The position numbers and the translations under genes were made by a program. From a virus (taxonomy: Duplodnaviria; Heunggongvirae; Uroviricota; Caudoviricetes), in the IMG/VR virus record IMGVR_UViG_2617270948_000001, positions 1-12,692 of that record: a stretch of 12,692 nucleotides of DNA. One strand, written 5' to 3'. Position 1 is the first letter of the stretch. Every line of letters begins with the position of its first letter. Shown in pieces: positions 62 through 8,783 of this stretch. The notes beneath the pieces were generated by a model. It was given only the letters and a program-made list of their open reading frames with translations. It had not been told where the DNA came from and made no database searches.

Positions 62-1225
62 TTACACATCATTAGTACCTTCCTTATTTTTTGACTGGGA
101 CAAATTTGGGACCGATGGGTTCAGGATCGAGTCTATTTGCCGTGCGTGTTCGGTAAGGTGATTAGGTGCAAGGTGAGCATATCGACGAACCATTTCGATA
201 GACTCCCAGCCTCCCATTTCCTGTAACACTGACAACGGGACTCCGGCTTGAACCAGCCAACTTGCCCAGGTGTGTCTCAAGTCGTGAAATCTGAAATCAT
301 CAATACCAGCCCGTCTCAGCGCCGCTTTCCAGGCTGTGTTTGCGTCATACCGCATCTTCCTTACTGTTGGCGCTTTCGTTCCGTCTGGTTTGGTACAGCT
401 TTCCTTGTACACAAATACCCAACGGTGATGATTCCCGATTTGTTTTTTCAATACGCGACATGCAGTATCATTCAGCGCAACGCCAATTGCGCGGTTTGAT
501 TTACTCTCTTCCGGGTTTATCCATGCCACCCGGCGCTGCATATCTATTTGTTGCCATTCAAGGTTGATGATGTTCGAGCGTCTTAAGCCTGTTGCCAGTG
601 CAAATTCAACAACAGACTTTAATGGCTCCGGACATTCATCAATCAGCCTTTGTGCTTCATGGGGCTCCAGCCAGCGGATCCGTTTATTCTTTGGTTGAGG
701 CACTTTAATAATTGGTGCCTTATCCAGCATTTTCCATTCACGCTCTGCGGCTCTTAGTAGGGCCTTTATAAATGAAAGATGCGTAGCCTTCGTTGCAACG
801 GACGCTGGTTTTGGCGTGTATTCTGGAACAGGTTTCCCTTTTTTTCTGCATGCTTCTGCCCTGAGTTTCCAGTTTTCCTCATGACGCCGGTTCGTCATTT
901 TCTGCATTGCTGAATAAATTTTTGATTCAGTAATGTCTCTTAGTTGCATTCCTGCGAAATGTTGAAGCCAGAATCCGATCCGGCTTTTGTCATCGTCCAG
1001 TGATTTTTTATGTGCTTTCTCTTCAAGCCACCTGACACAAGCTTCCTCGAACGTTATATCAGGTATTTCACCAAGTTTGCTGACCCGCCATGCTTCAGCC
1101 TTTAGCTTGTCATGGAGTTCTGTCGCCTGCCTTTTGTCCTTTGTTCCAAGAGACTGTTTAAATCTTTTACCGTTCGGCAATGTGAAACTGGCGTACCATA
1201 TTTCACCTCTGCGGAAGAGTGACAT
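62..1225 (-). CDS. int: Tyrosine recombinase / phage integrase, P22-Int type (387 aa)
   Basis: ATG at 1225 preceded by GAGGA; TAA at 62-64. Protein begins [22 protein letters not shown] as recalled for P22 Int. C-terminal catalytic signature HDLRHTWAS ... VRRYAHL (HxxR and Tyr nucleophile). Adjacent to tRNA 3' end. Confidence 0.93.
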
Positions 1226-2916: not shown

Positions 2917-3070
2917 ACAGCCCCCGTTTATTATTTATCGCCTCAGCCAGCCGCTGTGCTTTCAGTGGATTTCTGATAACAGAAAGGCCGGGAAATACCC
3001 AGCCTCGCTTTGTAACGGAGTAGACGAAAGTGATCGCGCCTACCCGGATATTATCGTGAGGATGCGTCAT
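2909..3070 (-). CDS. Unlisted small ORF (53 aa, [53 protein letters not shown]) between exo and the methyltransferase
   Basis: ATG overlaps the exo TGA stop (ATGA), and its TGA overlaps the methyltransferase start (ATGACTGA). Below the ORF-track length cutoff. Occupies the slot of the small ORF downstream of exo in lambda. Confidence 0.4.
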
Positions 3071-3747
3071 CGCCATTGCTCCCCAAATACAAAACCAATT
3101 TCAGCCAGTGCCTCGTCCATTTTTTCGATGAACTCCGGCACCATCTCGTCAAAACTCGCCATGTACTTTTCATTCCGCTCAATCACGACATAATGCAGGC
3201 CTTCACGCTTCATGCGCGGGTCATAGTTGGCAAAGTACCAGGCATCTTTTCGTGCCACCCACATGCTGTACTGCACCTGGGCCATGTAAGCCGATTTTAT
3301 GGCCTCGAAACCACCGAGCCGGAACTTCATGAAATCCCGGGAGGTAAACGGGCATTTCAGTTCAAGGCCGTTGCCATCACTGCATAAACCATCGGGAGAG
3401 CAGGCGGTGCGCATACTTTCGTCGCGATAGATGATCGGGGATTCAATAACATTCACGCCGGAAGTGAACTCAAACAGGGTTCTGGCGTCGTTCTCGTACT
3501 GTTTTCCCCAGGCCAGTGCTTTAGCGTTAACTTCCGGAGCCACACCGGTGCAAACCTCGGCAAGCAGGGTGTGGAAGTAGGACATTTTCATGTCAGGCCA
3601 CTTCTTTCCGGAGCGGGGTTTTGCTATCACGTTGTGAACTTCTGAAGCGGTGATGACGCCGAGCCGTAATTTGTGCCACGCATCATCCCCCTGTTCGACA
3701 GCTCTCACATCGATCCCGGTACGCTGCAGGATAATGTCCGGTGTCAT
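3067..3747 (-). CDS. exo: Lambda exonuclease (Red-alpha, 226 aa)
   Basis: Near-identical over full length to lambda Exo as recalled ([40 protein letters not shown] ... GFVFGEQWR). Start overlaps bet stop by 4 nt. Confidence 0.96.
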
Positions 3748-4529
3748 GCTGCCACCTTCTGCTCTGCGGCTTTCTGTTTCAGGAATCCAAGAGCTTTTAC
3801 TGCTTCGGCCTGTGTCAGTTCTGACGATGCACGAATGTCGCGGCGAAATATCTGGGAACAGAGCGGCAATAAGTCGTCATCCCATGTTTTATCCAGGGCG
3901 ATCAGCAGAGTGTTAATCTCCTGCATGGTTTCATCGTTAACCGGAGTGATGTCGCGTTCTGGCTGACGTTCTGCAGTGTATGCAGTATTTTCGACAATGC
4001 GCTCGGCTTCATCCTTGTCATAGATACCAGCAAATCCGAAGGCCAGACGGGCACACTGAATCATGGCTTTATGCCGTAACATCCGTTTGGGATGCGACTG
4101 CCACGGCCCCGTGATTTCTCTGCCTTCGCGAGTTTTGAATGGTTCGCGGCGGCATTCATCCATCCATTCGGTAACGCAGATCGGATGATTACGGTCCTTG
4201 CGGTAAATCCGGCATGTACAGGATTCATTGTCCTGCTCAAAGTCCATGCCATCAAACTGCTGGTTTTCATTGATGATGCGGGACCAGCCATCAACGCCCA
4301 CCACCGGAACGATGCCGTTCTGCTTATCAGGGAAGGCGTAAATTTCTTTCGTCCACGGATTAAGGCCGTACTGGTTGGCGACGATCAACAATGCGATGAA
4401 CTGCGCATCGCTGGCATCACCTTTAAATGCCGTCTGGCGAAGAGTGGTGATCAGTTCCTGTGGGTCGACAGAATCCATGCCGACACGTTCAGCCAGCTTC
4501 CCTGCCAGCGTTGCGAGTGCTGTACTCAT
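3744..4529 (-). CDS. bet: Lambda Beta single-strand annealing protein (Red-beta, 261 aa)
   Basis: Matches lambda Bet as recalled ([66 protein letters not shown] ...), same length. Confidence 0.96.
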
Positions 4530-4534
4530 CCGTT

Positions 4535-4831
4535 TTATACCTCTGAATCAATATCAACCTGGTGGTGAGCAATGGTTTCAACCATGTACCGGATGTGTTC
4601 TGCCATGCGCTCCTGAAACTCAACATCGTCATCAAACGCACGGGTAATGGCTTTTTTGCTGGCCCCGTGGCGTTGCAAATGATCGATGCATAGCGATTCA
4701 AACAGGTGCTGGGGCAGGCCTTTTTCCATGTCGTCTGCCAGTTCTGCCTCTTTCTCTTCACGGGCGATCTGCTGGTAGTGACGCGCCCAGCTCTGAGCCT
4801 CAAGACGATCCTGAATGTAATAAGCGTTCAT
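4535..4831 (-). CDS. gam: Lambda Gam, short (GamS-length, 98 aa) form only
   Basis: [60 protein letters not shown] ... VDIDSEV matches lambda Gam from its internal Met. The upstream in-frame extension is closed by TAA at 4907-4909 and has no ATG. Confidence 0.92.
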
Positions 4832-4906: not shown

Positions 4907-5284
4907 TTAGTGATTCAGACCGTTGCCGCGTCCGTCGAGAAAAACTTCCACGAGCAAGTCACGGGTATAAGTGCGCTCAATGCCGCGATGCAGATAAAGT
5001 CGTCCGCGTAAATTAGCTGATGCAGTCCAGGTACCATCTTTGCGTTTGACCAGCATTCCTGGCATGACCGCACCTCGATTAACGGTCTGCGTTCCGTAAT
5101 GTTGATGAACCATAAAAACTCCTGCCCGTAAGCTGGGCTGCTGAACATATAGAGACTTCTGCGCGTATTCAGGCGGTGGATGGCCGCCGGTTGTCATAAC
5201 TAAGCCGCCTCGTTGAAGCGACTGAGGTATGAAGTGTTGAGTTGATTTCAGCTGGTCACACCGACGTTCACGCGTCCGCTTCAC
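4907..5284 (-). CDS. Hypothetical protein, first gene downstream of putative PL (N position); 125 aa if GTG at 5284, or 68 aa if ATG at 5113; arginine-rich N-terminus KRTRERR
   Basis: Open frame 4907-5317 (the listed start is TTG). GTG at 5282-5284 has GGAG 8 nt upstream; ATG at 5111-5113 has AGGAG 5 nt upstream. N-terminal KRTRERRCDQLK resembles the arginine-rich motif of N antiterminators (lambda TRRRERR). C-terminus does not match lambda Kil (which ends ...WILILKLRSSKSIH in the frame overlapping gam). Confidence 0.3.
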   Translation of the reverse strand: MKRTRERRCDQLKSTQHFIPQSLQRGGLVMTTGGHPPPEYAQKSLYVQQPSLRAGVFMVHQHYGTQTVNRGAVMPGMLVKRKDGTWTASANLRGRLYLHRGIERTYTRDLLVEVFLDGRGNGLNH

Positions 5285-5390
5285 CCCTCGCACTCCCCGG
5301 AGCCTGCTGAAATTCAAGCTGCGGATCTAAGCGGTCATCGCAACGGTGAATCAGGTGATTGCCGTATCGTTGTGTTGTTGCGATGAATTC

Positions 5391-5434
5391 ATTTAAAACT
5401 ATAGTTGTTTTATCGTCAACAACAAAAGTTGTTT
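5391..5434 (-). promoter_or_regulatory. Putative PL promoter and OL operator cluster (GTTGTT/AACAAC repeats overlapping a TTGACG -35)
   Basis: Minus strand: TTGACG (complement of 5414-5419), 17-bp spacer, TTAAAT (complement of 5391-5396). Overlapping GTTGTT(5404-5409)-N8-AACAAC(5418-5423) and AACAAC-aaaa-GTTGTT(5428-5433), the same half-site as the OR palindrome. Confidence 0.35.
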
Positions 5435-5561
5435 TGTTGGTTATTTTAGAAATAACTGGTTGTATTTAGGATGGATTTATTTTGTGACTTGCATCGCATA
5501 GCGATAACTGAAGCGAGGTTGTGGTGGTTTTTTGAACGGTGTGTGTGATGAGGGGAGGGGC

Positions 5562-5597
5562 AAAAGAAAACCCGGCACGGTGGCCGGGTTGTTTTTA
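5562..5597. terminator. Strong bidirectional intrinsic terminator (8-bp stem AACCCGGC/GCCGGGTT, loop acggtg, flanked by A-run and T-run)
   Basis: aaaagaaaaCCCGGCacggtgGCCGGGttgttttta; T-tract on either strand. Lies immediately 3' of the 316-aa minus-strand gene (stop at 5595-5597), ending the cI-cassette transcript before the PL region. Confidence 0.75.
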
Positions 5598-6545
5598 TAG
5601 CTCATTGTAAACAGCAATAGGCTCAATGAAATACTCATCAGAGTCAGGGGCGCAAAATGTTGACTCCAGATCAAAAAGGCTGTCATTCATATTCCAGACT
5701 GCACTGCGAATGCCGTTTAGTTCACGAGCCTCTGATTCCTGATTACCTTCAGACGTTGATGTACGCGTTATTATCCCTACGACTGTGAATGCAGAGGTCG
5801 TTCGACGAGAATATAACTTTACAAACATTTCTGGACTGATTTTAAGAAAATCTCTGATTAAGAATGAGGTGAATTTAATATCTTGCATTTTTTGTGATAT
5901 TTCTATTTCGTCACCATATGCGTAATCTAAAACAGAAGACAAATGCTCAAAGAATTTTTTCTGATTTGGAGATGTTAAATTATCAAGCTCACTTTTAATT
6001 TCTGCTTGTCTTGCCTTGATAATATTAAATTCATTGGATTTGGGTTTTATCGATTTCAGCATCGATTCTAGACTTTCTAATTCGTCATTTCGATGAACGA
6101 AATTAATAGCATAGTTAGTTTTACAGAAATTCTTAGCGGTATTTTTTAATTTATTATAGTCATTAAATTGAATTGGGCAGGTGATTTTAACAAAGCAATT
6201 AGCCTTAATTTTGTTCGAGTCGATCGGGGAAGTTATGTTAGACAGAATTCCTCTTTTGCTAAGTTCGTTTTCAAATTTCAGATAATGATAATCATGAGGG
6301 TTTAACACTGTTGATATTTTTTTTGTGTCACTCGTTTTACTTGAACTACTTTTTGTCTTTATTTCGACCGCATCTATATTTGAAAGAGTAGACTCTTTAT
6401 GCTCCATCGCGGATTGAATTACGCCCTCAAATAATTGAGAGCTTAAAGAGTAGACCTTCTCATAATCAATATAAATGATATTTTTTAACTGCATACCAAT
6501 TCCATTAGTGATATTTAAGTTGTTCTTTCTTTCTTTCAAAGTCAT
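5595..6545 (-). CDS. Hypothetical soluble protein (316 aa; possibly 299 aa from internal ATG at 6494), AT-rich cargo, no recognised family
   Basis: Long open frame in strongly AT-rich DNA unlike the flanking phage genes. Last gene of a three-ORF cassette co-oriented with cI. No Walker or other motif recognised by eye. Confidence 0.6.
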   Translation of the reverse strand: MTLKERKNNLNITNGIGMQLKNIIYIDYEKVYSLSSQLFEGVIQSAMEHKESTLSNIDAVEIKTKSSSSKTSDTKKISTVLNPHDYHYLKFENELSKRGILSNITSPIDSNKIKANCFVKITCPIQFNDYNKLKNTAKNFCKTNYAINFVHRNDELESLESMLKSIKPKSNEFNIIKARQAEIKSELDNLTSPNQKKFFEHLSSVLDYAYGDEIEISQKMQDIKFTSFLIRDFLKISPEMFVKLYSRRTTSAFTVVGIITRTSTSEGNQESEARELNGIRSAVWNMNDSLFDLESTFCAPDSDEYFIEPIAVYNEL

Positions 6546-6681
6546 CGCTATTTGACTTTCTGACCCTTTCTATGTGCATTAAAGTTTCCTGTGCATTTTT
6601 GAGGTTTTTTCTTGAAAACCATGCCAATACAGCAGGTATCACAACAGCTATTATGGATAAAATAGTAATTAAGTACTCCAT
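6505..6681 (-). CDS. Unlisted small membrane peptide (58 aa, MEYLITILSIIAVVIPAVLAWFSRKNLKNAQETLMHIERVRKSNSDDFERKKEQLKYH), single N-terminal TM helix
   Basis: ATG at 6679-6681 lies 3 nt after the TAA of the upstream 138-aa gene, whose last codons (CAG GAG TAA) supply an AGGAG Shine-Dalgarno. 3' end overlaps the 316-aa ORF start by 41 nt in another frame. Below the ORF-track cutoff. Confidence 0.45.
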   Translation of the reverse strand: MEYLITILSIIAVVIPAVLAWFSRKNLKNAQETLMHIERVRKSNSDDFERKKEQLKYH

Positions 6682-6684
6682 AAT

Positions 6685-7101
6685 TTACTCCTGCGCCACT
6701 ACTTTGTTATTGATAATAGCACACCTGACTGAATTTTGTCCAATGTATAAGGATATACCACAAGTAATAGCGACTAATATGCGAGTCGTATTCATGTTAA
6801 GGATGTTATCAGCCAGCATAACAATAATGTAAATTATAGAAAAAAGTACAATGAAAACAATCGATATGGTAGTGTTTATAATAATATTGTTTTCAGTTTG
6901 CTTGCTGGGTTGGCCCATTCCGTAATAAATACTGGATATTTGTATGGCAAAGCCAAAACATATCAACTCAGTTATATTGATCAGCTCTATGTTTTTATTA
7001 GTGATGAAATAAGCAATAAATCTAATAAAGATAGGGATTGCTCCAATGATTACTGTTCCGCACCACCACTTGAAATAATCACTATGAATATTATGTTGCA
7101 T
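6685..7101 (-). CDS. Hypothetical integral membrane protein (138 aa, about four predicted TM helices), first gene after cI
   Basis: Hydrophobic segments WWCGTVIIGAIPIFIRFIAYFI, ELICFGFAIQISSIYYG, ISIVFIVLFSIIYIIVMLA, ILVAITCGISLYIG. ATG at 7101, 49 bp downstream of the cI stop. AT-rich. Size and topology resemble RexB but no sequence similarity is claimed. Confidence 0.6.
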   Translation of the reverse strand: MQHNIHSDYFKWWCGTVIIGAIPIFIRFIAYFITNKNIELINITELICFGFAIQISSIYYGMGQPSKQTENNIIINTTISIVFIVLFSIIYIIVMLADNILNMNTTRILVAITCGISLYIGQNSVRCAIINNKVVAQE

Positions 7102-7149: not shown

Positions 7150-7839
7150 TTACCCATGCTTCCTGTACGTCTGCGGCATGCTCCCGATGACTTTCCCGAA
7201 AATGAATACCCGGTTCATCTCGTCTTTCTCGATCGGGTCCCACGGTGAGTAACTCTTGTTATCAGAGATAACGAGCAGCTTATCCTTCATCATTTGCAGG
7301 CGCTTTACATGGGCTGTGTCGTCGTACAGAAACGCATAGATACCATCACCGTCGAAAGATTTAACAGTGATATCAACGAACAAAAGGTCACCTGGTTCGA
7401 TCGTTCCTGACATGCTGTCACCGCGTACGTTAATGATGCGGATATTTTCTGCCTTCCTACCATCGAACATGTGACGAGCATCGTCAAACGAGTACTCAAC
7501 CGAGCGTAGAACTTCTACAAACTCACGGTTGATGACTCCCGGCCCGGCACTCACTTCTATATCAAGAACGTCAATCTTAAAGTATTTGGAATGGCTGACA
7601 GTTGATTGTATTGGTTGCACTGTACTGTCTGACATATTTCCAACGCCAGAAGATAACCATTCTGCGCGCACACCCAAAGCGTTCGCGATCTCCACGATTT
7701 TAGTTGTTTGATTAGCTTTCCCTGTTTCGATTTTCTGAATAGCAGCCTGGCTAACCCCGACCAAATCCCCAAGCGCCTTTTGTGTAAGGCCTCGCGCTAA
7801 TCTGGCTTCTTTAAGTCTTTCTGAGAGTGTTGTTTTCAT
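7150..7839 (-). CDS. CI-like prophage repressor (229 aa from ATG at 7839): N-terminal XRE-type HTH plus C-terminal LexA-like S24 autopeptidase domain
   Basis: HTH segment LTQKALGDLVGVSQAAIQKIETGK; Ala-Gly cleavage site in VSAGPG; catalytic Ser in RGDSM and Lys in HVKRL. The listed ORF start at 7905 runs through the operator region. ATG at 7839 has almost no leader, consistent with a PRM-type leaderless transcript. Confidence 0.85.
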   Translation of the reverse strand: MKTTLSERLKEARLARGLTQKALGDLVGVSQAAIQKIETGKANQTTKIVEIANALGVRAEWLSSGVGNMSDSTVQPIQSTVSHSKYFKIDVLDIEVSAGPGVINREFVEVLRSVEYSFDDARHMFDGRKAENIRIINVRGDSMSGTIEPGDLLFVDITVKSFDGDGIYAFLYDDTAHVKRLQMMKDKLLVISDNKSYSPWDPIEKDEMNRVFIFGKVIGSMPQTYRKHG

Positions 7840-7931
7840 AGTCCAAATGTACAACCAAGGTTTTATTCCATCAAACGAAAATGGTTGTTGACTAAAAACA
7901 ACCATAGTTTTAATCTTGATTCAAATTAACC
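7840..7931. promoter_or_regulatory. OR-like immunity switch: divergent PRM (minus) and PR (plus) promoters with a 25-bp perfect palindromic operator
   Basis: Palindrome ATGGTTGTT-gactaaa-AACAACCAT at 7881-7905. PR: TTGACT (7888-7893), 17 bp, TAATCT (7911-7916). PRM on minus strand: TTGATG (complement 7869-7874), 17 bp, TACATT (complement 7846-7851), about 7 nt before the cI ATG. Extra ACAACC/GGTTGT half-sites at 7851-7856 and 7937-7942. Confidence 0.55.
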
Positions 7932-7943
7932 ATGGAGGTTGTT

Positions 7944-8174
7944 ATGAACCCAGCTATCAAAACAGCGATCAATATCGTTGGTTCACAAAAGAAACTGGGC
8001 GCTGCTTGCGAAGTTTCACAGCAGGCCGTCTATAAGTGGCTTCACAACAAAGCAAAGGTATCCCCTGAACATGTCGGCAGCATTGTTACGGCTACTGGTG
8101 GAGTAGTGAAGGCATACCAGATTCGCCCGGATCTTCCGAAGTTGTTTCCACACACCGAAAAGAACGCAGCTTAA
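7944..8174 (+). CDS. Cro-like small HTH regulator, DicC/YdaS-like (76 aa from ATG at 7944; the listed ORF begins at an upstream ATG at 7932)
   Basis: GGAGG at 7934-7938 sits 5 nt before the ATG at 7944. Sequence SQKKLGAACEVSQQAVYKWL is a DicC/YdaS-type HTH. Divergent from the repressor across the operator region. Confidence 0.7.
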   Translation: MNPAIKTAINIVGSQKKLGAACEVSQQAVYKWLHNKAKVSPEHVGSIVTATGGVVKAYQIRPDLPKLFPHTEKNAA

Positions 8175-8186
8175 ATTTCCATTTCA

Positions 8187-8199
8187 CGCTCTTTAACAA
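8187..8199 (+). promoter_or_regulatory. boxA-like element CGCTCTTTAACAA at the nutR position just downstream of cro
   Basis: GCTCTTTAACAA matches the E. coli rrn/lambdoid boxA consensus as recalled. Located 13 bp after the cro-like stop, where nutR lies in lambda. No convincing boxB hairpin seen downstream. Confidence 0.35.
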
Positions 8200-8243
8200 T
8201 AAGCAATCAACTTAACAGTCAATTCAAACTAAAGGAGTCAATT

Positions 8244-8783
8244 ATGCAACCACTTACATACCAACAGACTAGCGGATTTAGCCCGACTGCGGTGATAAAT
8301 CGTTCTCAAACAAAACAGGTGCCAGGCCACGAAAAAATCCGTGATGCCGTCCGCGCCTGGTCGGCTGTAGATAATCAGGATGTCGTTGCCACACTCATTG
8401 TGAATGAGTATCGGGAGCAGGGCGGCGGCACCATCGATTTCCCTGATGATGTCAGCCGTGCACGCCAGAAGCTGTTCCGCTTCCTCGATAACAAATTCGA
8501 TTCTGAAAAATACCGAAATAACGTGCGTGAACTGACCCCGGCAATTCTGGCTGTACTACCGCTGGAATATCGCGGCCACCTGGTTGAGCAGGATAGCTTC
8601 ATGGCTAGGCTGGCTGAAATGGAAAAGGAACTCAGTGAGGCAAAACAGGCTGTCATTCTCAACGCACCACGCCACCAGAAACTGAAGGAGATGAGTGAAG
8701 GCATTGTGTCGATGTTTCGAGTGGACCCGGATCTGGCAGGTCCATTGATGGCGATGGTCACCACCATGCTGGGGGCAATATGA
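8244..8783 (+). CDS. YdaT-like protein at the cII position (179 aa)
   Basis: AGGAG 7 nt upstream of ATG at 8244. Segments NEYREQGGG and LTPAILAVLPLEYRGHL resemble recalled Rac YdaT (EEYLRQGGG, LIPAILAILPRELRHRL). Follows a YdaS/DicC-like cro as in Rac-type immunity regions. No similarity to lambda CII. Confidence 0.5.
   Translation: MQPLTYQQTSGFSPTAVINRSQTKQVPGHEKIRDAVRAWSAVDNQDVVATLIVNEYREQGGGTIDFPDDVSRARQKLFRFLDNKFDSEKYRNNVRELTPAILAVLPLEYRGHLVEQDSFMARLAEMEKELSEAKQAVILNAPRHQKLKEMSEGIVSMFRVDPDLAGPLMAMVTTMLGAI

Follow-up and report, generated by a model that had tools for sequence, protein, structure and literature searches.

The window, by which is meant the whole stretch of 12,692 nucleotides analysed here, corresponds to the early region of a lambdoid prophage of E. 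coli; its genes, promoters and operators are collected in Table 1. A cI-type repressor gene and cro diverge over an intergenic gap of 104 bp, and the view of a first-pass annotation that the two form the immunity switch of a lambdoid prophage is upheld by their domain assignments, HTH_3 plus S24 in the one and Cro in the other. The sequence elements that it described are likewise all in place, and the main value added here lies in a corrected parsing of the operators and in a code that links their half-sites to the recognition helix of the repressor.

Table 1. Genes, predicted operators and putative promoters of the window, in order of position; matches are to ACAAC-N4-GTTGT
Feature	Position	Strand	Sequence or assignment	Match	Remark
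Integrase	62-1225	-			
exo, bet, gam	3067-4831	-			
Putative PL	5391..5419	-	-35 TTGACG (5419-5414), 17-nt spacer, -10-like TTAAAT (5396-5391)		
OL1-equivalent operator	5395..5408		AAAAC-TATA-GTTGT	9/10	ACAAC-TATA-GTTTT on the PL strand
OL2-equivalent operator	5419..5432		ACAAC-AAAA-GTTGT	10/10	
cI-type repressor, 229 aa	7150..7839	-	HTH_3 (Pfam, 5e-13) and S24 autopeptidase (Pfam Peptidase_S24, 1e-18)		
Putative PRM	7846..7874	-	-35 TTGATG (7874-7869), 17-nt spacer, -10 TACATT (7851-7846)		
OR3-equivalent operator	7851..7864		ACAACCAAGGTTTT (ACAAC-CAAG-GTTTT)	9/10	inside PRM, between -35 and -10
OR2-equivalent operator	7875..7888		ACGAAAATGGTTGT (ACGAA-AATG-GTTGT)	8/10	weak left half
Perfect 25-bp palindrome	7881..7905		composite: OR2 right half, PR -35 spacer and OR1 left half		
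Putative PR	7888..7916	+	-35 TTGACT (7888-7893), 17-nt spacer, -10 TAATCT (7911-7916)		
OR1-equivalent operator	7898..7911		ACAACCATAGTTTT (ACAAC-CATA-GTTTT)	9/10	between PR -35 and -10
Possible fourth site	7929..7942		ACCAT-GGAG-GTTGT	8/10	centred on the cro Shine-Dalgarno
Cro, 76 aa	7944..8174	+	YdaS / lambda-P22 Cro superfamily (Pfam YdaS_toxin, PF15943, 4e-17; P22_Cro, 8e-5)		
YdaT-family protein	8244..8783	+	Pfam YdaT_toxin (PF06254), 7e-30; PHROG 163, CII-like activator		cII position
O and P replication genes	within window		lambda-type		

The recognition helix of the repressor, VSQAAIQK, occupies residues 29-36 of an N-terminal 434-like HTH_3 domain, whose top-scoring PDB hit is the 434 repressor (phmmer, 1per/2or1; E 4.5e-9, ~38% identity), residues 5-68 aligning ungapped with 2-65 and the equivalents of Gln17 and Gln28 being conserved. 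The C-terminal domain matches UmuD/UmuD' in a PDB search, and the landmarks of S24 self-cleavage are found at Ala98-Gly99, Ser142 in GDSM and Lys179 in VKRL. Cro, whose PDB match is Xfaso1 Cro (3bd1) and which falls in PHROG 35, is preceded by a Shine-Dalgarno sequence, GGAGG, at 7934-7938.

Between the two genes lies a perfect inverted repeat of 9 + 9 bp, ATGGTTGTT (7881-7889) and AACAACCAT (7897-7905) separated by N7, in which TGGTTGT and ACAACCA stand 9 bp apart; as the first-pass annotation said, it sits on the -35 of PR. It is the sole match in the 12.7-kb window with three mismatches or fewer, where 0.02 would be expected, and matches were obtained in 4 of 200 shuffles. The hexamer GGTTGT/ACAACC occurs near the palindrome at 7851 (-), 7883 (+), 7898 (-) and 7937 (+) and 13 times in the whole window against 6.4 expected, four more of the 13 being clustered at 5189-5592, beside the left operator.

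The pairing of these half-sites was judged from relatives of the locus, of which four diverged phages (Klebsiella ST101-KPC2phi6.1, Salmonella UPF_BP1, Providencia PSTCR7lys and Erwinia phiEt88) made up the first comparison; 44 genome loci retrieved by the cI N-terminal domain were then added, and an unbiased spacer scan covered 41 related loci (253 kb). For ACAAC-Nk-GTTGT, the scan yields one dominant, sharp peak at k = 4, with 173 occurrences distributed over all 41 loci, whereas the inverse arrangement, GTTGT-Nk-ACAAC, shows two spacings in the same loci, with 23 occurrences at k = 9 and 57 at k = 10. Counted from the cI start, three OR sites recur at the fixed offsets 14, 38 and 61 nt in relatives that are 52-84% identical in the cI N-terminal domain, while the N4 centres and the spacers between sites vary freely; the relatives share ancestry, and this conservation is not fully independent evidence. 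An operator-first search with the pattern ACAAC-N4-GTTGTTG-N7-9-ACAAC-N4-GTTTT, itself derived from the same relatives, retrieved at least 120 viral contigs, in 94 of which the same strand encodes, 0.7-3.2 kb upstream, a helix of the form [VI][ST]QA[AS]IQK; the other 26 contigs mostly have too short an upstream sequence to judge. Together, the 41 related loci and these viral contigs show the recognition unit to be, as far as sequence can define it, a 14-bp dyad, ACAAC-N4-GTTGT. The proposal that GTTGT is an operator half-site is borne out in this way, GTTGT/ACAAC recurring in the relatives.

Parsed with this unit, the 104-bp intergenic region very probably constitutes a tripartite right operator like those of lambda and 434. 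A scan of the whole window for ACAAC-N4-GTTGT returns four sites matching at 9 or more of the 10 positions against a null mean of 0.47, two of them in OR and two in OL. The start-to-start spacing is 24 bp from OR3 to OR2 and 23 bp from OR2 to OR1 (22-24 bp for the latter pair across relatives), and in sequence geometry OR2 lies directly against the PRM -35, while its last base is also the first of the PR -35. Since the left arm of the palindrome coincides with the right half of OR2 and its right arm with the left half of OR1, the palindrome is, on this parsing of the sequence, formed where the inner half of one 14-bp operator meets that of the next; it would have no function of its own, the good halves of OR2 and OR1 simply facing each other across the PR -35. 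The arms exceed 5 bp because the sites prefer a self-complementary YATR centre, which makes the good half-site effectively ACAACCA/TGGTTGT, and the last two complementary pairs (7881/7905 and 7889/7897), which the 14-bp model does not predict, are best put down to chance. The further ACAACC/GGTTGT half-sites that had been noted on either side are indeed there, at 7851 and 7937, and they belong to OR3 and to the possible fourth site, respectively.

The OR3 position is kept in all relatives and matches the consensus at 10/10 in most of them, the mean over 19 unique OR3 sites being 9.47/10. The N4 centres are A/T-rich in OR1, OR2 and OL1 (0.81-0.84) and mixed in OR3 (0.49). At the OR2 position, the UPF_BP1-like group carries ACAAC-yAAA-GTGTT. 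It may be observed that the left half of OR2 in the window, ACGAA, is degenerate, and that its conservation could reflect the adjoining PRM -35 instead of repressor contacts.

An earlier parsing, in which the 25-bp palindrome itself would be a single operator, occupied by one dimer or tetramer through GTTGT-N9-ACAAC and flanked by isolated accessory half-sites, is now very improbable. A perfect 9 + 9 repeat is improbable by chance, this one overlaps the PR -35, and the inverted repeat persists at the junction in relatives, where phiEt88 and locus L024 show what looks like a compensating change (ATAGTTGT...ACAACTAT against ATGGTTGT...ACAACCAT in the window). That change, however, follows from the preference of the 14-bp sites for their YATR centre, and the half-sites pair as ACAAC-N4-GTTGT in 41 of 41 related loci, with the intra-site N4 invariant, while the arm gap of the palindrome in OR varies among 8, 9 and 10 bp in relatives with the same helix and amounts to 10 bp at almost every OL junction, that of the window included. 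Moreover, a single operator would present its half-sites inside-out, at ~14 bp centre to centre where a 434-like dimer spans ~9 bp, and it gives no reason why the outer halves of OR1, OR3, OL1 and OL2 should be invariant.

No better are the prospects of the proposal that the palindrome or the half-site array is read by another protein, either the YdaS-type Cro, bound in another register, or the cII analogue of the YdaT type. The Cro helix VSQQAVYKW does resemble the cI helix VSQAAIQKI, and in CP-933P the footprints of PaaR2 and YdaS overlap, the exact sites being unresolved there (PMC8630535); yet the arm spacing varies among relatives with very similar Cro proteins, which argues against a fixed 25-bp unit. 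For YdaT, TTGACTAAAAACAACCAT (7888-7905) fits the CP-933P site TTGATT-N6-AATCAA with three mismatches, but matches of this quality are common in the window (21 observed against 11.9 expected), and CP-933P YdaT binds between ydaS and ydaT, outside OR (PMC9986795). Least probable of all is a role at the RNA level, with the palindrome serving as a hairpin or as an intrinsic terminator in both directions, for example on leftward establishment transcripts toward cI: a terminator scan flags both strands (9-bp stem, 7-nt loop, T-rich tails) and for the minus-strand RNA the predicted folding energy is -10.5 kcal/mol (z = -2.9), but the element lies upstream of both predicted starts and would be absent from the PR and PRM transcripts, its stem has only three G-C pairs, termination just before cI would defeat establishment transcription, and the pairing potential is an automatic by-product of operator halves that face each other.

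Several other features were examined and set aside. Pairing of the flanking half-sites at the N7/N9 spacing of the palindrome was rejected, no partners being present at 7834-7842 or 7951-7959. A direct repeat, D2 (7888-7905 and 7916-7933), was dropped because it is absent from the conserved sequence of the relatives, as were the YdaT-like TTGATT-N6-AATCAA matches, which are unconserved among them.

The promoters on which the tripartite right operator is laid out are modest in sequence. PR and PRM each match the sigma-70 consensus at 8 of 12 positions, the PR -10 alone at 3 of 6, and a consensus promoter scan of the window called neither. The first-pass annotation had their positions right, with hexamers that are conserved, but overstated the case in calling the rightward promoter well-formed. 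In the relatives, the TTG of the PR -35 starts at the last T of OR2 and the TAnnnT of its -10 at the last T of OR1, while the TTG of the PRM -35 abuts OR2 and the TAnnnT of its -10 lies 6-8 nt from the cI ATG; these hexamer skeletons (TTGnnn and TAnnnT) keep constant offsets while the intervening sequence diverges. Transcription from PR would begin near 7923.

The start of cI is the ATG at 7839 (MKTTL...), an in-frame stop lying 1-14 codons upstream and no alternative ATG being available in most relatives. The 251-aa cI open reading frame that reaches 7905 in the PhiR34_1 annotation is an over-extension whose start codon would be the CAT of the palindrome. Only six nucleotides (7845-7840) separate the PRM -10 from the ATG and a Shine-Dalgarno sequence is absent; therefore, the transcript from PRM, putatively starting at or beside the A of the ATG, would be leaderless. 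The leaderless cI mRNA that had been proposed for the window is in keeping with this geometry, which is conserved across relatives, and it has precedents in the leaderless repressor mRNAs demonstrated experimentally for lambda cI and CP-933P paaR2 (PMC8630535).

A second operator cluster is found at the leftward early promoter, where the OL sites flank the TTGACG -35. OL2 is the sole 10/10 ACAAC-N4-GTTGT site in the window, and a third OL site, at 5450-5463, is weak (7/10). Putative PL fell below the threshold of the consensus promoter scan, and its -10, the assignment of which is ambiguous, lacks the usual A at position 2. Read on the minus strand, OL2-PL-OL1 aligns nearly base for base with OR2-PR-OR1, the gap at the junction being 10 bp at OL and 9 bp at OR. 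In ~25 relatives, a perfect OL2 followed by OL1 at 24 bp start to start is kept 0.8-2.7 kb from OR, and the arrangement of OL2, PL -35 and OL1 is likewise conserved. The distance from OL to OR is 2.4 kb in the window against ~1 kb in PhiR34_1 because an insert of 1.5 kb with three genes comes after cI; searches with PADLOC and PHROGs found no function for these three genes between cI and OL.

From this layout we infer how the switch would work, from the binding of proteins and the order in which sites fill to the activation of PRM, the points at which transcription starts and a loop between OL and OR. Dimers of cI would recognise ACAAC-N4-GTTGT through the 434-like HTH, reading the outer 5 + 5 bp and leaving the central 4 bp free. 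Occupancy of OR1 and OR2 would block PR, and cI at OR2, which is centred at about -42.5 from the predicted PRM start, probably stimulates PRM; -42.5 is the position from which lambda cI activates its own PRM. Binding at OR3, within PRM, would provide negative autoregulation of cI, while occupied OL1 and OL2 would repress PL and could loop to OR. During the SOS response, RecA-stimulated self-cleavage, using the residues named above, would inactivate cI, after which the YdaS-type Cro would be expected to bind the same operators. The central base pairs of the 434 operators, although uncontacted, influence affinity through their sequence (PMC1636474), and it may be speculated that the operator centres could help set the order of occupancy if that behaviour holds here.

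Among known systems, 434 is the closest in its operators. Each of OR and OL in 434 contains three 14-bp sites, of which the outer 5 + 5 bp are contacted and the central 4 bp are read indirectly, with ACAATNNNNATTGT as the reference operator (PMC1636474). The window shares with it the repressor domain for which 434 is the best PDB match, 14-bp operators of the form 5 + 4 + 5 with outer ACAA...TTGT, multiple sites in OR and OL, and the A/T-rich centres seen at OR1, OR2 and OL1. The sole difference from the reference is at position 5 of the half-site, which is C in the window (ACAAC) and T in ACAATNNNNATTGT. In natural 434 sites, this position is T or G. The proteins also differ: Gln29, Ser30, Glu32 and Gln33 of the 434 helix are replaced by Ala, Ala, Gln and Lys in the window cI, and the window Cro is no paralogue of the repressor domain, belonging instead to the YdaS / lambda-Cro family and matching Xfaso1 Cro rather than 434 Cro. 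No similarity to 434 at the DNA level was found in the phage collection. To judge by position 5, the four helix residues and the Cro family, the window is not 434 immunity. A literature search found no publication that quotes the operator sequences of the window, and the specificity appears to be experimentally uncharacterised, yet a close variant of the 434 operator.

With lambda, the window shares the divergent cI (HTH + S24) and cro, three operators at 23-24 bp start to start, an OR2 that adjoins the PRM -35, a cI mRNA that is leaderless (predicted in the window), a duplicate operator/promoter set at PL, lambda-type O and P genes and, in the position of rex, accessory genes downstream of cI that end at a terminator (5569-5590). 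It differs from lambda in operators of 14 bp instead of 17 bp, in the family of the repressor DNA-binding domain, in the YdaT-family protein at the cII position and in that many of its relatives have their most symmetric site closest to cI, at OR3. By its predicted layout, the switch is of the lambda/434 type in function and arrangement, an uncharacterised member of a well-known kind.

The order of a YdaS-family Cro and then a YdaT-family cII analogue is that of CP-933P from E. coli O157:H7, for which experiments have established a leaderless repressor gene, PRM and PR, YdaS as Cro and an OL (PMC8630535), as well as YdaT as the functional equivalent of cII (PMC9986795). Both loci also have an intergenic region of ~100 bp with PRM and PR and a copy of OL/PL, and four repeats have been noted in the CP-933P OR (PMC8630535, PMC9986795). 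However, PaaR2 lacks an S24 domain, its gene lies ahead of a toxin-antitoxin pair, and the CP-933P repeats, with the consensus GTTTAGTAA in 18-bp palindromes, are unrelated to ACAAC. With its S24-containing repressor and its ACAAC-N4-GTTGT repeats, the window is not, on sequence grounds, of the CP-933P type.

A further likeness is to the RdgA-type repressors of Pectobacterium/Erwinia, a label taken from the annotation of phiEt88; we take the Pectobacterium loci to be the RdgA of the pectin-lyase circuit. Their N-terminal domains are 72-75% identical to that of the window cI and contain the same helix, VSQAAIQK, and a perfect ACAACCTAGGTTGT dyad stands at the same offset from the start codon. 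Their intergenic region is longer, and within 170 bp there is no compact arrangement of OR2, OR1 and cro. If the operator code is indeed common to these chromosomal RdgA-like regulators, cross-talk between prophage and host circuits would be allowed.

Helix and operator covary among the relatives. All loci with the helix (V/L)(S/T)QAAIQK carry ACAAC-N4-GTTGT dyads at the fixed offsets, and homologues with the helices QPTIWR, QPSIFK, QPSIWK or QPTVNR gave no ACAAC site of at least 9/10 in ~6 kb each. Two of these homologues, L042 and L044, carry clean ATAnC-N4-GnTAT dyads at the same offsets, and in L038 and L046, also with different helices, dyad detection gave an ambiguous picture. With the 14-bp code, ACAAC-N4-GTTGT together with helix VSQAAIQK, homoimmunity groups become predictable from sequence. 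The analysis also corrects a recurrent over-extension of the cI open reading frame in database records, and these 434-like pairs of repressor and operator offer a natural series in which to study recognition at half-site position 5 and from which to build orthogonal repressor parts.

In biological terms, the arrangement is a textbook one and would not surprise a specialist. It is very common in E. coli: the immunity region is present in 1524 of 5426 complete genomes (~28%). It also occurs in recently isolated temperate phages, with at least 97% identity to the immunity region in six sequenced ones, including PhiR34_1, PhiR5_1, Turner and IdasGreatGrand. In the remaining E. coli phages, sharing is confined to the C-terminal half of cI, and the immunity-specific module thus comprises the cI N-terminal domain, the intergenic region and cro.

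Whether the right operator extends to a fourth functional site at 7929-7942, with the cro Shine-Dalgarno as its uncontacted centre, is doubtful, and we consider it unlikely on balance. The same position in relatives reads ACAAC-GGAG-GTTkT (9/10), with the preceding 13-20 nt unconserved. If the site is real, repressor or Cro sitting there, roughly from +6 to +19 of PR, would act as an additional roadblock, and in the mRNA the dyad of this site would form a small hairpin whose loop contains the ribosome-binding site. Since OR3 exceeds the other sites in symmetry in many relatives, the two features together would make the locus a differently wired version of the classical three-site switch. The distance from this site to OR1 is variable across relatives, ranging from 27 to 32 bp.

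The longest open reading frame for the predicted repressor cI extends on the minus strand through 7840-7905 to an ATG at 7905 and would encode 251 aa, the form annotated in the temperate phage PhiR34_1 (5302-6057 of locus L001), whose immunity region is nearly identical. Because in-frame stops precede the MKTTL start by 1-14 codons in related loci, the true start is 7839, not 7905; the extended start would fall within both OR1, one of the proposed operators, and the 25-bp palindrome. The putative recognition helices of cI (encoded at 7150-7839; VSQAAIQKI, helix residues 29-37) and of the YdaS-family Cro (7944-8174; VSQQAVYKW) are alike in otherwise unrelated proteins, a likeness consistent with both reading the same ACAAC half-site.

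Further candidate elements lie around the proposed operators (table below). The dyad over the cro ribosome-binding site recurs at the same offset in the related loci L003, L004, L024, L026, L029, L031-L037 and L045; relatives keep its left half, and the 5′ UTR preceding it is not conserved. This dyad could be a fourth operator, or its RNA could fold into a small hairpin presenting the cro ribosome-binding site. On the leftward side, no clean third dyad is found upstream of OL2, either at 5440-5465 or in most relatives; lone direct-orientation half-sites (ACAACCA, ATAACCA or AAAACCA) occur there instead, at a spacing of approximately 11-20 bp. The cro-ydaT intergenic region contains no good match to the YdaT site TTGATT-N6-AATCAA of CP-933P, a cryptic prophage of E. 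coli O157:H7.

Candidate features of the early region
Feature	Position	Strand	Remarks
Fourth ACAAC-N4-GTTkT-like dyad	7929-7942		Centre is the cro Shine-Dalgarno GGAG
Exact 8-nt direct repeat AGTCAATT	8217 and 8236		Within the cro-ydaT intergenic region 8175-8243
Three genes in the rex position, between cI and OL	5595-7101	Minus	Products of 138, 58 and 316 aa, the last a DUF6414 protein
Strong bidirectional terminator-like hairpin	5569-5590		Ends the three-gene block
Best OL3 candidate	5450-5463		Only 7/10 match

The three genes in the rex position are absent from PhiR34_1; PADLOC returned no significant defence-system match for them, and PHROGs placed them in families of unknown function only. 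They possibly constitute a moron that is co-transcribed with cI and expressed in the lysogen.

In the E. coli genome collection, the immunity region occurs at 1728 places in 1524 genomes, with a maximum of four per genome; some strains therefore carry several prophages or remnants of the same immunity, which would not be expected were superinfection immunity effective. Repressor homologues with a recognition helix identical to that of cI are also encoded in Pectobacterium chromosomes (L008-L018), and these are presumably RdgA-type regulators. In the chromosomal loci the autoregulatory position, offset by 14 from the repressor start, still holds a perfect ACAACCTAGGTTGT dyad, and a second dyad lies about 100 bp from the first (offset about 117-121); the compact OR2/OR1/cro arrangement is absent. 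These regulators are probably domesticated phage repressors that share their operator code with the prophage cI.
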